Virus genome (UHGV): UHGV-0117634
Source of the DNA: a virus
Length of the DNA stretch: 64,000 bases
Reading direction: 5' to 3' (one strand)
Both the position numbers and the translations under genes were made by a program. The notes beneath the pieces are model-generated. The model ran no database searches and was not told the origin of the DNA. It was given only the letters and a program-made list of their open reading frames with translations. Positions 43,115 through 46,493 of the stretch are shown here, one piece after another (position 1 is the first letter of the stretch; each line of letters starts with the position of its first letter).

Positions 43115-43191
43115 TTGGTAGCCCATCGGGATTTGAACCCTGTTCTCATGTTTTTCAGACACGCGCTTTAACCATATAAGCTAATTGAGCT
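43115..43191 (-). tRNA. tRNA-Phe (anticodon GAA), atypical D-arm and T-stem
   Basis: Acceptor TAGCTCA/TGGGCTA, anticodon arm CGTGT-CTGAAAA-ACATG, T-loop TTCAAAT; only 3 clean T-stem pairs. Confidence 0.55.
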
Positions 43192-43197
43192 ATTAAA

Positions 43198-43274
43198 TTG
43201 GGGTGACCTACGGGAATCGAACCCGTATAGACCATGTTCACAGCATGGGTCATTATCCATTTATGATAAGGCCA
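43198..43274 (-). tRNA. tRNA-His (anticodon GTG)
   Basis: Anticodon arm CCATG-CTGTGAA-CATGG, T-arm ACGGG-TTCGATT-CCCGT, discriminator C, CCA. Confidence 0.7.
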
Positions 43275-43305
43275 CATTTAAGGACTCTCGTAAGAACCCT
43301 TAGAA

Positions 43306-43381
43306 GTGGCAGCAGTATAAGGATTTGAACCTTAATCTTTCAGCTTCAGAGGCTGGAGCATTGCCAGTTATGCTATACTGC
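43306..43381 (-). tRNA. tRNA-Gln (anticodon CTG)
   Basis: Canonical 76-nt fold; anticodon loop CTCTGAA; T-arm TAAGG-TTCAAAT-CCTTA; CCA. Confidence 0.65.
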
Positions 43382-43387
43382 TAATAT

Positions 43388-43459
43388 TTGGTACTCCATA
43401 TCGGATTCGAACCGATACATAACACAGATTTTAAGTCTGGCCTCTCTGCCAATTGGAGT
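43388..43459 (-). tRNA. tRNA-like gene, atypical (short D region; anticodon loop CTTAAAA, anticodon TAA)
   Basis: 7-bp acceptor TACTCCA/TGGAGTA, T-arm with TTCGAAT, but truncated D-arm and no long variable arm. Confidence 0.45.
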
Positions 43460-43468
43460 AATGGAGCA

Positions 43469-43544
43469 TTGGCGGGGGATGTTGGAATTGAACCAACTTC
43501 TTCGATTTCAAAGACCGAGGTTTTAACCTTGTAAACTAATCCCC
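43469..43544 (-). tRNA. tRNA-Gln (anticodon TTG)
   Basis: Anticodon arm TCGGT-CTTTGAA-ATCGA, T-arm GTTGG-TTCAATT-CCAAC, CCA; A1-C72 mismatch. Confidence 0.7.
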
Positions 43545-43771
43545 TAACTAACTCTTGTAAGAATATATGCGTTATTGCATGTATCTTTATTTTCTGGCAA
43601 CATTGTTTCAAAGATAACTTGCTTTAATTCCAAACCAGCAAAGTTGTAGACAATCTTTCTAACTTCTAATGGGTCAGCTTTCCAGCCAACTCTGATAAAG
43701 AAAGTATCTCCAAATCTCCCTGTTTCAAGCTTGTCATCTTCTGGGTGTTTTTCAACTATGAGTTTAAACAT
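43544..43771 (-). CDS. hypothetical small protein within tRNA cluster
   Basis: 75 aa; AAGGG SD-like sequence upstream; stop abuts tRNA-Gln. Confidence 0.35.
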   Translation of the reverse strand: MFKLIVEKHPEDDKLETGRFGDTFFIRVGWKADPLEVRKIVYNFAGLELKQVIFETMLPENKDTCNNAYILTRVS

Positions 43772-43790
43772 AAGTTACCCTTTTAAATTT

Positions 43791-43867
43791 GGTGCAGAAT
43801 AAGGGATTCGAACCCCTAACTAACAACTTCGTAGGTTGCTGCTCTGTCCATTTGAACTAATTCTGCA
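43791..43867 (-). tRNA. tRNA-Arg (anticodon ACG)
   Basis: Acceptor GCAGAAT/ATTCTGC, anticodon arm GCAAC-CTACGAA-GTTGT, T-arm AGGGG-TTCGAAT-CCCTT, CCA. Confidence 0.75.
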
Positions 43868-44044
43868 ATATCCTTTTGAGATTCCTGTCTAGCTCTCTTC
43901 TTATCTCTTCTGAGAAAGCGTTTACGATGGTCTGTACGCCATTTGTAATAATCTTCTTCACCATCATGTGCTGCACAGCAGCCACAACTTGCAATTTCAA
44001 CTTTACCATGTCTACCATAAGGCTTCATAGGAATCTCCTAAAAT

Positions 44045-44122
44045 TGGTGTTCCAAGACGGATTCGAACCGTCACTAATACAAGGTTTGAGCTTGCATCCT
44101 CTACCAATTGGGATACTGGAAC
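44045..44122 (-). tRNA. tRNA, isotype uncertain (anticodon CAA, class I-like length)
   Basis: Acceptor GTTCCAG/TTGGAAC, T-arm GACGG-TTCGAAT-CCGTC, anticodon loop CTCAAAC, CCA; 78 nt. Confidence 0.5.
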
Positions 44123-44123
44123 T

Positions 44124-44198
44124 TGGTACTCGCTGAAGGACTTGAACCTTCTTCACCAACTTGTAAGGATGGGGCTTTACCGTATAAACTAAGCGAGC
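44124..44198 (-). tRNA. tRNA-Val (anticodon TAC)
   Basis: Anticodon loop CTTACAA, T-arm GAAGG-TTCAAGT-CCTTC, CCA. Confidence 0.6.
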
Positions 44199-44294
44199 TT
44201 TAAAAGAGGTCTGAAGTTGTGCCGCTAACTCAACTCCGTGGAATTTGTTACGGTCTTCAGTTGACTCAAGCGGTCTTTCACTTGACCTCAAAAT

Positions 44295-44371
44295 TGGTGC
44301 TGCTCACAGGAGTTGAACCTGCATCTCCATCCTTACAAGGGATGTGTAATAGCCAATTATACGAAAGCAGC
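44295..44371 (-). tRNA. tRNA-Thr (anticodon TGT)
   Basis: Anticodon arm CATCC-CTTGTAA-GGATG, T-loop TTCAACT, CCA. Confidence 0.7.
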
Positions 44372-44372
44372 A

Positions 44373-44881: not shown

Positions 44882-44957
44882 TGGTGGAGAAGCAGGGAAT
44901 TGAACCCTGTACTTAAGTTTGCAAAACTTATGTTTTAACCATGTAAACTACATCCCC
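44882..44957 (-). tRNA. tRNA-Ala (anticodon TGC)
   Basis: Anticodon arm TAAGT-TTTGCAA-ACTTA, T-arm CAGGG-TTCAATT-CCCTG, CCA. Confidence 0.7.
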
Positions 44958-44963
44958 GATATT

Positions 44964-45039
44964 TGGTACAGGTGGAGGGAATTGAACCCATCGTCTTACT
45001 GATTAAGAGTCAGCCGCATAACCATTTTGCTACACCTGC
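44964..45039 (-). tRNA. tRNA-Lys (anticodon CTT), noncanonical T-stem
   Basis: Anticodon arm GCTGA-CTCTTAA-TCAGT; T-arm GGG-TTCAATT-CCC with flanking mismatches; CCA. Confidence 0.55.
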
Positions 45040-45046
45040 ATTAATT

Positions 45047-45123
45047 TGGTACACCTAGAGAGAGTCGAACTCACACTGAACAGATTCTAAGTCTGCTGCC
45101 TCTTCCAATTGGGCTATAGGTGC
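45047..45123 (-). tRNA. tRNA, isotype uncertain (anticodon TAG, class I-like length)
   Basis: Acceptor GCACCTA/TAGGTGT, anticodon arm AGCAGA-CTTAGAA-TCTGTT, T-loop TTCGACT, CCA; no long variable arm. Confidence 0.5.
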
Positions 45124-45370
45124 ATTAAATCTTTGTAGAGAACTTCCAAGACCCCAAAGCAACAATGGTATAGTTTGCCTCAGAAGTTCTCTAAAAAGAC
45201 CTATCTGGCCTTTGCATAGTCTTGCTTAATCCGGTGACTAGAACCTTTGGAGAGCTTGATACTATCTCTTCTCCGTGACACCTACTAGGTGCTTTCTCAA
45301 CATCGTGTACGCCAATACACGGAGGAAACCTAACGCAACATTCGAACGGAGCGCGGCTTTAAATCTTATT

Positions 45371-45461
45371 AGGCGGTAAGTAAAGGAGTCGAACCCTCAC
45401 CGTATCTCTACAGTGGCAACAGTTTTCAAGACTGTTTGGCTGCCATTAGCCGCTACCTACC
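45371..45461 (-). tRNA. tRNA-Ser (anticodon TGA), class II
   Basis: Acceptor GGTAGGT/ACTTACC, anticodon arm ACAGT-CTTGAAA-ACTGT, long variable arm, T-loop TTCGACT; CCA not encoded. Confidence 0.65.
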
Positions 45462-45474
45462 CCTAATAAGACTT

Positions 45475-45557
45475 TGGCATGGGACGGAGGAATCGAACCC
45501 CTTTGAGTAAGTTTTGGAGGCTTACGCACATGCCTTAGTGTCTTAACATCGTCCCAT
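45475..45557 (-). tRNA. tRNA, isotype uncertain (possibly Trp, CCA in enlarged anticodon loop)
   Basis: Acceptor ATGGGAC/GTCCCAT, T-loop TTCGATT, CCA end; body about 7 nt longer than class I. Confidence 0.45.
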
Positions 45558-45698
45558 ACTATAATTCGAAGCTTACCGTATTTTCACAACACTGTAAAGC
45601 CCCTTCTCAGAATATTTTACATGCTCTGGAAACATGAGATACAGACCACCTCCTTACAGGAGACCCGTTAAGGTCGTCTAAGTAATCTGCTAACTATT

Positions 45699-45782
45699 TG
45701 GCAGCCAAGGTAGGAGTCGAACCTACTTACTATCGAAGGTAGCTAACCTTCAGCAACTTTCCGACTTTCGTTCATCTCTTAA
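45699..45782 (-). tRNA. tRNA-like element, atypical (possible pseudogene)
   Basis: Clean T-arm GTAGG-TTCGACT-CCTAC, 3' acceptor CTTGGCT-G-CCA, hairpin GAAGG-TTAGCTA-CCTTC, but no good D-arm or 5' acceptor partner. Confidence 0.35.
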
Positions 45783-45827
45783 CATGTATCGAAGATGACT
45801 TACTCGTGTTGTCTTGACCATTAAATT

Positions 45828-45903
45828 TGGCACTCCGTATAGGACTCGAACCTATATATTAACTGTTTAGAAGACAGTTGCCTATCCTTTAGACTAACGG
45901 AGC
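45828..45903 (-). tRNA. tRNA-Arg (anticodon TCT)
   Basis: Acceptor GCTCCGT/ACGGAGT, anticodon arm ACTGT-CTTCTAA-ACAGT, T-arm ATAGG-TTCGAGT-CCTAT, CCA. Confidence 0.7.
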
Positions 45904-46181
45904 ATTAACATTTTAAAGGGTACTCATTGCATTTAAGCCAAGCCCCATAAGGGATACCCTTTAGAATGTTGCCCACTTTATTAATCATACCGTGGGCTAG
46001 TACGCCAAATTCTTTGATGAGGGGTTGGAAGACCTCACTGGTGTTTAGCCTATTAAGCTACTGCCAGAAAAACATTATCGTTTGCATTTATTTTTAAGTT
46101 TGCAAAATAGACGCTACGCTAACGAAAACTAAGGTAACTATAAAGTGGTCACATGTTAATGTCAACAACTTTATTGAAAAT

Positions 46182-46257
46182 TGGTACTGGTAGGTGGAAT
46201 CGAACCACCGATGTTCGGTTATCAGCCGAGTGTTATAACCTTCTTAACTATACCAGC
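46182..46257 (-). tRNA. tRNA-Ile (anticodon GAT)
   Basis: D-stem GTTA/TAAC, anticodon loop CTGATAA, T-arm GGTGG-TTCGATT-CCACC, CCA. Confidence 0.75.
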
Positions 46258-46259
46258 AT

Positions 46260-46336
46260 TGGAGGTTCAGGTGGGAATCGAACCCACATTCATAGGGCTT
46301 ATGAAACCCTTGCATTACCTTATCTGCGACTGAACC
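46260..46336 (-). tRNA. tRNA-Met (anticodon CAT)
   Basis: Anticodon arm AGGGT-TTCATAA-GCCCT, T-arm GTGGG-TTCGATT-CCCAC, CCA. Confidence 0.7.
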
Positions 46337-46417
46337 ATTATAAGTTGCCCCTTTGTAGAGAACTGATTGAGTGGGTGTTTCCAGCCGCGCATGTGTTCTT
46401 CAGTTAAGGGGCGAATT

Positions 46418-46493
46418 TGGTAGAAGTGGAGGGATTCGAACCCGTCGCCTGTCAGATTAAAAGTCTGCCGCATCACCATTCTGCTACACTTCC
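46418..46493 (-). tRNA. tRNA-Lys (anticodon TTT), noncanonical T-stem
   Basis: Anticodon stem CAGA/TCTG with loop CTTTTAA; T-arm GGG-TTCGAAT-CCC; CCA; same architecture as 44964..45039. Confidence 0.6.

Follow-up and report, generated by a model that had tools for sequence, protein, structure and literature searches.

Lysine and phenylalanine tRNA genes with a conserved irregular acceptor/T branch in the tRNA array of a Felix O1-like phage

The stretch of the virus genome UHGV-0117634 analyzed here (the window; 64,000 nucleotides, nt) contains a transfer RNA (tRNA) array that megablast searches place in a Mooglevirus-like member of the Ounavirinae, i.e., a Felix O1-like phage. The region is 94–96% identical to the Shigella phages SFPB and Sf17 (Mooglevirus) and 85–90% identical to Felixounavirus and Suspvirus; the matches to the Erwinia Kolesnikvirus phages and to the Pectobacterium phage Arno18 are limited to single tRNAs. 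ARAGORN predicts 25 tRNA genes between positions 42189 and 47673, all on the minus strand, of which 23 are supported by the Rfam tRNA model (RF00005), with one further tRNA being detected by Rfam only. In the Sf17 record the same genes are annotated as tRNAs, the source being tRNAscan-SE predictions. We concentrate on three members of this array, tRNA-Phe(GAA), tRNA-Lys(CUU) and tRNA-Lys(UUU), hereafter Phe, Lys-CUU and Lys-UUU, which an initial annotation had described as sharing a T-arm with only three G–C pairs and two mismatches. ARAGORN places all three genes on the minus strand exactly where that annotation had put them (Table 1). Their scores, 56.9 bits for Lys-CUU, 54.2 for Lys-UUU and 39.2 for Phe, exceed the RF00005 gathering threshold of 29 bits and fall within the range of 30.9–64.3 bits seen over the array. 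Scoring with a covariance model, which had been suggested as a check, thus recognizes all three as tRNAs, but only with an insertion in the T-stem (the Lys genes) or with deletions (Phe). Each gene displays a canonical anticodon loop (seven bases, with U33 and a purine at position 37), a seven-base UUCRAWU T-loop (TTCRAWT in the DNA), a discriminator base and an encoded CCA. The acceptor stem is paired at 7/7 positions in both Lys genes; that of Phe differs in comprising 6 base pairs (bp), a bulged A and one or two further bp before A73 and the CCA. An uninterrupted 5-bp T-stem is found in none of the three.

In what we term the standard register, with five bases taken on each side of the TTCRAWT loop, the T-arms read CAGGG-TTCAAAT-CCCGA in Phe, ATGGG-TTCAATT-CCCTC in Lys-CUU and ACGGG-TTCGAAT-CCCTC in Lys-UUU, such that each has three G–C pairs (GGG/CCC) and two non-pairs. 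The T-stem is fully paired in 21 of the other 22 tRNAs of the array, the one left being tRNA-Leu(UAG) with a single U·U non-pair. As a background we used 436 distinct phage tRNAs adjoining unrelated pattern matches in IMG/VR, of which 403 have a recognizable T-loop: 384 of these T-stems are fully paired, 17 have one non-pair, and just one shows the layout with the outer two pairs unpaired. Given the fully paired neighbors and this single instance in the background, the layout in question is real and rare. A sequencing artefact was rejected as its source, the same forms being present in hundreds of independent genomes. Hence, the initial description is accurate for the sequences as read in the standard register. 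For the Lys genes, however, Rfam, RNAfold and RNAalifold indicate that this is probably the wrong register. Moreover, the trait is common to the two Lys genes but does not extend to Phe, whose irregularity is structurally different, with a 3′ strand that is one base short and a 5′ acceptor strand of eight bases.

Table 1. Coordinates in the window of the three tRNA genes and of the irregular elements in their acceptor/T branches (the Lys T-arms are drawn in the probable bulged register and the Phe bulge follows the proposed fold)
Feature	Position	Strand	Source
tRNA-Phe(GAA) gene, 76 nt, CCA encoded, non-canonical acceptor/T branch	43116..43191	minus	ARAGORN; Rfam, 39.2 bits
Phe T-arm C-A-GGG-UUCAAAU-CCC-G-A, only GGG/CCC paired in every orthologue, 3′ strand one base short	43126..43142	minus	
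Bulged additional A (43185) of the Phe 5′ acceptor strand and the next two bases, which can pair with 43126 and 43127	43183..43185	minus	
tRNA-Lys(CUU) gene, 76 nt, CCA encoded	44964..45039	minus	ARAGORN; Rfam RF00005, 56.9 bits
Lys-CUU T-arm GA[U]GGG-UUCAAUU-CCCUC, bulged U at 44990	44975..44992	minus	Rfam, RNAfold, RNAalifold
tRNA-Lys(UUU) gene, 76 nt, CCA encoded, paralogue of Lys-CUU	46418..46493	minus	ARAGORN; Rfam, 54.2 bits
Lys-UUU T-arm GA[C]GGG-UUCGAAU-CCCUC, bulged C at 46444	46429..46446	minus	Rfam, RNAfold, RNAalifold

The Rfam alignment of both Lys genes has one base inserted in the 5′ strand of the T-stem between pairs 2 and 3 (‘<<.<<<’). In the resulting bulge register the 5′ side is shifted by one base, and the stem reads G–C, A–U, an inserted U or C, and then GGG/CCC. 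The same register is found in the RNAfold minimum-energy structure, which is a bulged cloverleaf for both genes, and in the RNAalifold consensus of ten distinct members of the Lys family. When counted on the alignment of these ten members, 98% of the T-helix cells are paired in the bulge register versus 61% in the standard register, and the variable loop comprises five bases ending in C48 in the former versus six bases ending in G in the latter. The closest bulge-free relative is the 75-nt Lys-CUU of the Pectobacterium phage Arno18, which has the same D-arm and anticodon arm; its single gap in the MAFFT alignment falls at the bulge column, and its stem fits the bulge register with one compensatory A–U to G–C double change. 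Among the orthologues of both paralogues the bulged base is either a U or a C, its neighbors remaining fixed, the Lys-UUU of most Felixounavirus having a U. We also uncovered a separate viral family of tRNA-Lys(UUU) with an identical arm, CGAUGGGUUCAAAUCCCUCCAC, which follows a canonical variable loop, GUGUC, and is accompanied by G15 in the D-loop. The members of this family, on more than 60 uncultured large viral contigs (L173–L249, from IMG/VR, 70–190 kilobases (kb) in size), have the bulged T-arm CGATGGGTTCAAATCCCTCCAC, a canonical D-arm and no encoded CCA. Based on these observations, the Lys T-stem would most likely consist of five pairs, namely G49–C65, A50–U64 and G51–53:C61–63, with the extra pyrimidine bulged from the 5′ strand between 50:64 and 51:63 and a normal variable loop of five bases. 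No eighth acceptor pair is available, because U8 faces C65. The initial annotation had named a normal 5-bp T-stem in a different register as the outcome that would speak against it; five pairs do indeed emerge for the Lys genes in the shifted register, but in a stem that is bulged rather than normal.

Alternatively, the Lys T-stem might really have three G–C pairs, with A·C and Y·U mismatches at 49:65 and 50:64 and a six-base variable loop. Several results tell against the bulge register and in favor of this option: ARAGORN draws the Lys T-stems in the standard register; the isolated T-arm hairpin has a minimum-energy fold of 3 bp only (−3.4 kcal/mol versus −6.7 kcal/mol without the bulge); and the outer two pairs gain only 0.4–0.6 kcal/mol by nearest-neighbor energies, the slight amount by which the bulge register wins, with pairing probabilities of 0.35–0.62. 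In the same vein, G49–C65 and A50–U64 are invariant among the bulged genes, so that there is no covariation at these pairs, and the sole covariation in the Lys T-stem comes from one outgroup and is alignment-dependent. The varying U/C base, for its part, is unpaired under both models. Nevertheless, the three-pair model requires an unusual six-base variable loop ending in G and accounts for the smaller of the above two fractions of paired T-helix cells; three independent automated methods pick the other register, and the orthologue from Arno18 fits the latter, as does the unrelated family of viral Lys genes. We consider the three-pair model unlikely, and the exact register as modeled here is probably the bulged one. 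Relative to a normal arm, the Lys T-arm is weaker by about 3 kcal/mol in either register. A scan in which positions 49, 50, 64, 65 and the bulged base were left free, with the stem bulged or not, returned only the same 66 loci of the unrelated viral Lys family, all of the form GAT...TC, with no variation and no bulge-free sister. Likewise, a search for intermediates between the Arno18 and the Felix-type Lys genes gave a sole extra match, in the Erwinia phage UCB24, which proved to be a normal tRNA-Asn.

At 80%, the identity between the two Lys genes is the highest among 253 pairwise comparisons within the array (median 61%); both have the same short D-arm and T-arm, and their acceptor strands begin alike. 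In one Ounavirinae contig from IMG/VR (L019), the Lys-CUU gene is a chimera that combines the acceptor stem and D-arm of the UUU paralogue with the anticodon arm and T-arm of the CUU paralogue, indicating that the Lys copies still recombine. Given this paralogy, the bulge shared by the two genes is inherited rather than recurrent, and they count as one event; a single insertion would have occurred, either before the CUU and UUU genes arose by duplication or in the course of it. Thus, what had been taken for a recurrence in three separate tRNAs comes down to a single Lys event and a Phe irregularity that is different and older. The one-nucleotide shift of the anticodon arm that had also been ascribed to the two Lys genes is nothing other than their short D-arm, an instance of ordinary variation in D-loop length: the D-stem has 3 bp (or 4 bp if closed by an A·A mismatch), base 17 is absent, and ordinal 33 marks the start of the anticodon, as in tRNA-Arg(UCU), with a range of 33–38 over the array.

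The irregularity of Phe involves both strands of the acceptor/T branch. Ten rather than 11 bases follow the five-base T-stem strand, and the continuous 3′ strand (positions 61–72) is one base short, at 11 instead of 12. On the 5′ side, the acceptor strand extends over eight bases before A9 is reached. The Rfam alignment includes deletions at model positions 64 and 67. This odd gene is present in 286 phage records (Ounavirinae), among them those of Felix O1 and of the Erwinia Kolesnikvirus phages, with the following lineage-specific forms: AGCTCA-A-TT ... CCC-GA-TGGGCT in Mooglevirus, AGTCCA-A-GT ... CCC-AC-TGGACT in Felixounavirus, GGGTTA-A-GT ... CCC-AC-TAACCC in Suspvirus and GGTCTA-A-TT ... 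CCC-GA-TAGACC in Kolesnikvirus. The six outer acceptor pairs vary in a compensatory fashion. Across the bulged A, columns 8 and 66 covary, being U–A in three and G–C in four of the seven distinct orthologues, and columns 9 and 65 are U–G in three and U–A in four of them (RNAalifold, RNAfold). A fold with 6 bp, the bulged A, 2 bp and a 3-bp T-stem suits all seven sequences, and we accordingly put forward, as a proposal that draws on few independent lineages, an 8 + 3 branch with 11 bp in every case. A Phe relative from another viral contig (L043) has the same D-arm, a normal 7/5 layout and an equal total length; when compared with it, the Ounavirinae version looks like the product of a one-base gain on the 5′ side and a one-base loss on the 3′ side. 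Against the 8 + 3 fold stand its use of U8, which normally pairs with A14, and the single linker base that it leaves; further, a single event could account for the four lineage-specific differences. In the phages warpig, pEP20 and Silverhawkium, the Phe gene shows one base difference each, which lies outside the T-arm.

Three other ways of drawing Phe were set aside. In a 7 + 4 fold with two bulges, the fourth T-stem pair forms in only three of the seven sequences. The ARAGORN drawing, a 5-bp stem with a mismatch and a six-base T-loop, breaks the conserved seven-base UUCAAAU loop. The Rfam alignment, which starts at G2 and takes a U as the discriminator, would shift the encoded CCA out of register, whereas it is in register in every other tRNA of the array but tRNA-Ser(UGA), which ends in CC only. 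As a separate observation, further viral contigs (L048 and L052, L049, L050) code for tRNA-Phe relatives that have the same D-arm and whose T-loop, ATCGTTA, is unusual; the stem in L048 and L052 is GG[TC]GGG/CCCCC, with two unpaired bases before the GGG, i.e., an irregular T-stem in an unrelated phage.

Comparison with the orthologues shows that the irregular forms are kept in related phages. Lys-CUU is 100% identical in Sf17, garuso, SUSP2 and Mushroom, which represent Mooglevirus, Felixounavirus and Suspvirus; across the compared phages Lys-UUU is 97–100% and Phe 84–100% identical, the averages over the array being 87–91% for tRNAs and 73–81% for open reading frames (ORFs). Changes on both sides of a pair are seen in four of the seven Lys and five of the eight Phe acceptor pairs, and the acceptor stem of Lys-UUU shows compensatory changes in SUSP2 and phiSUSP1. 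The bulge is kept in all of the approximately 60 Lys gene copies from 34 Ounavirinae loci in IMG/VR, and the same irregular forms are found in about 250–290 sequenced phages. One could still suppose that the three genes are decaying pseudo-tRNAs whose irregular T-arms represent random damage, as hinted by the Rfam score of Phe, which is just 39.2 bits, by the further weak or degenerate tRNA-like elements in the array, and by the less stable folding of the tRNAs of this phage group relative to those of the host (PMC12482277). However, the Lys genes are among the most conserved of the array, acceptor pairing is maintained by compensatory changes, the anticodon loops, T-loops and CCA are intact, and the same irregular forms are present in all those sequenced phages. 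Together, these features lead us to reject random decay, for which we see hardly any chance. Thus, the view of the initial annotation that this is a family trait is borne out by the conservation across genera and by the compensatory acceptor changes.

We therefore think it likely that these are working phage tRNAs with an inherited and retained acceptor/T branch that departs from the usual 7 bp + 5 bp. Two considerations temper this: the identity across genera could in part reflect recent recombination rather than purifying selection, and our literature search found no expression or aminoacylation data for these three tRNAs. The sequences, their conservation, the compensatory changes and the automated folds are direct results; that the tRNAs are expressed and charged is inferred, as are the exact register and the neutral or adaptive nature of the irregularity. 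The three tRNAs would presumably serve in decoding AAA, AAG and UUC during infection, as ordinary decoding tRNAs that carry a tolerated, lineage-fixed irregularity of the acceptor/T branch. The host lacks a tRNA-Lys(CUU), and the phage makes greater use of AAG (PMC12482277). The latter study, which is purely computational and does not discuss the stems, deals with the Sf14 array, near-identical to that of the window; it found the phage tRNAs to be less stable than those of the host and many of them, including both Lys and Phe, to be isotype-inconsistent in tRNAscan-SE (PMC12482277).

Our survey of the bulged arm beyond the Ounavirinae bears on whether the irregularity might be more than tolerated. 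On the above-mentioned large contigs, the bulged Lys gene is often the only tRNA in its locus (e.g., L173:10049-10124), and a few copies of the family have the anticodon loop TTAAAAA. In L173 it adjoins genes for a beta-CASP RNase and ClpP, which are the only Pfam domains recovered among the ORFs neighboring the large-contig Lys genes, with no integrase; a megablast search with L173 against cultured phages gave no match. In cellular genomes the GA-Y-GGG/CCCUC arm occurs sporadically, and the matches listed include His, Ser, Glu, Met, Lys, Thr and Trp tRNAs as well as the transfer-messenger RNA (tmRNA). It is conceivable that the irregular T-arms are adaptive, in that they alter recognition by EF-Tu, by enzymes of maturation or modification, or by host defense nucleases that cleave tRNAs, and thereby keep Lys and Phe decoding going when host tRNAs are attacked. 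In line with this, neither paralogue has lost the bulge, nor has any of the sampled gene copies, and an identical arm is present in the tRNA-Lys(UUU) of the more than 60 large contigs from unrelated viruses, where there is often no other tRNA nearby. The bulge is also located within the group of T-stem pairs that determine the affinity for EF-Tu, the pairs 49:65 to 51:63 reportedly having been found by the Uhlenbeck laboratory to tune this affinity. Furthermore, tRNA-Lys(UUU) is targeted by PrrC, by AriB of the PARIS system and by a bacterial Schlafen nuclease, the last of which also cuts tRNA-Phe(GAA) (PMC11555353, PMC11464382, PMC13056530). On the other hand, the anticodon arm is where all three nucleases cut, and it is the anticodon stem-loop that AriB recognizes (PMC11464382, PMC13056530). 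The experimentally resistant tRNA-Lys of phage T5 has a normal 5-bp T-stem, and hence the T-stem irregularity as a source of nuclease resistance was dismissed as unsupported. Likewise, the GA-Y-GGG/CCCUC arm is scattered over many cellular isotypes and tmRNA, a T-stem bulge is dispensable in selC* tRNA-Cys (PMC5389517), and the study of the Sf14 array judged nuclease escape to be unlikely (PMC12482277). An adaptive role for the T-arms thus strikes us as improbable. In a bolder version of this idea, the bulge would have been selected as the mark of a mobile tRNA-Lys lineage, exchanged between the Ounavirinae and an unrelated clade of uncultured phages of 70–190 kb that often have hardly any other tRNA, and would alter handling by EF-Tu, maturation enzymes or defense nucleases directed at tRNAs, with the 11-bp branch of Phe being a second, independent solution. 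We rate this scenario as quite doubtful; if true, the mobile bulged Lys lineage and the Phe branch would bring new classes to the small set of functional tRNAs that are not 7/5.

A different feature of Lys-UUU, its anticodon stem, invites comparison with the site at which such nucleases act. The stem comprises G·A, C–G, A–U, G–C and A–U, and that of the Escherichia coli tRNA-Lys G·U, U–A, U–A, G–C and A–U, with AriB cleaving between positions 40 and 41 (PMC11464382). Relative to E. coli, 28:42 is C–G rather than U–A and 29:41 is A–U rather than U–A, in addition to which there is a G27·A43 mismatch. The window thus encodes a tRNA-Lys(UUU) with an anticodon stem-loop unlike that of the host at the nuclease site and, by analogy with the T5 tRNA-Lys, Lys-UUU might be resistant to PARIS.

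The array and its surroundings hold several other elements. A tRNA-Tyr(GUA) at 47027-47114 (minus strand) is recovered by ARAGORN at a relaxed threshold only, being missed by default ARAGORN and at the Rfam gathering score; its orthologue is annotated as tRNA-Tyr in Sf17 and as tRNA-Pseudo or OTHER in other records. The region 46689-46763 (minus strand) matches the Rfam tRNA model with 30.9 bits and has the loop CUUAUAA, whose UAU anticodon would read the Ile codon AUA, and two acceptor mismatches; it is not called by ARAGORN and is unannotated in Sf17. The 366-nt spacer between tRNA-Ser(UGA) and tRNA-Arg(UCU) contains two tRNA-like remnants on the minus strand. The first (45478-45560) has a 7-bp acceptor, a G, the CCA, the T-arm AGGGG-TTCGATT-CCTCC, a Trp-like CUCCAAA loop and an aberrant D region of 26 nt; the second (45699-45772) has a good T-arm (GTAGG/CCTAC) and the loop UUAGCUA but is devoid of a D-arm. 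Rfam gave no match to either of them at E ≤ 1. Between tRNA-Thr and tRNA-Gly lies an ORF of 137 amino acids (44373-44786, minus strand) with a sub-threshold Pfam match to the HNH domain (19.5 bits, cut-off 21.4); in Sf17 these two tRNA genes are just 6 nt apart, suggesting that the ORF is an insertion polymorphism of a mobile endonuclease in the array. The long spacers at 45124-45371, 45462-45827, 45904-46181 and 46494-46943 are 86–92% identical to Felixounavirus and Suspvirus, i.e., as conserved as the tRNAs and more so than the ORFs (73–81%), and may hold further stable RNAs. Adjoining the array is a gene (47839-49254, minus strand) for a 471-amino-acid protein with DUF2828 and DUF7788 domains, which is labeled ‘vWFA protein’ in the relatives.

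It is now known that phage tRNAs rescue infection if defense systems cut the tRNAs of the host, with tRNA-Lys being the commonest target, and the Felix O1 group is large and much used, including for typing and as therapy candidates. In this setting, the conserved irregular branch of the Lys and Phe tRNAs offers a cheap and well-defined test of how much irregularity is tolerated by the bacterial translation apparatus, and the same test case could show whether such irregularity ever serves to escape or tune recognition. At a practical level, standard tRNA finders score these genes low or label them as ‘pseudo’, ‘undetermined’ or isotype-inconsistent, and thus annotations and codon-adaptation analyses of these phages need care.

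With the canonical elongator tRNAs (RF00005), such as those of the T4 and T5 arrays, the three tRNAs share the cloverleaf, anticodon loop, T-loop, discriminator and CCA. They differ from them in the bulged pyrimidine of the Lys T-stem and, in Phe, in the three constant T-stem pairs, the short 3′ strand and the bulged acceptor A. Among phage-encoded tRNA-Lys(UUU) species, those of T5 (directed against PARIS) and of SP15 and other phages (directed against PrrC170) likewise have an anticodon stem unlike that of E. coli (PMC11464382, PMC11555353); in T5, however, resistance maps to that anticodon stem and the T-stem is normal. A closer structural parallel is provided by the 8/4 tRNA-Sec and the selC* tRNA-Cys with their bulged A51a, and by the 8/4 and 9/3 branches more generally, some of which are found in phages (Mukai et al. 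2017, PMC5389517; review PMC7609411). As in these, the Lys tRNAs would be translation-competent molecules with one unpaired base in the 5′ strand of the T-stem, lying one step earlier than 51a. In contrast, tRNA-Sec and selC* tRNA-Cys combine an 8-bp acceptor with a 4-bp T-stem and a bulged A and read UGA or Cys/Sec codons, whereas the Lys genes are 7/5 with Lys anticodons; their U or C is placed between 50 and 51 in the three automated folds, in a register that is thermodynamically marginal, and so differs from A51a in both base and position. Neither Lys (7/5 plus the bulge) nor Phe (eight bulged plus three, 11 bp) has the 12 bp of an 8-bp acceptor and a 4-bp T-stem. In its longer acceptor and shorter T-stem, the best-fitting fold of Phe resembles the allo-tRNAs and the bacterial and phage tRNA-Ser and tRNA-His of the (8/4) type, which have 8/4 or 9/3 branches and some of which occur in phage tRNA clusters (PMC5389517); these have 12 bp and no acceptor bulge, versus 11 bp, a bulged A and a normal 4-bp D-stem in Phe. 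Our literature search found no paper describing the Lys bulge or the Phe branch in the Ounavirinae. T-stem bulges and 8/4 and 9/3 tRNAs are already known, and the modest novelty here is the Lys and Phe variants of the Ounavirinae.

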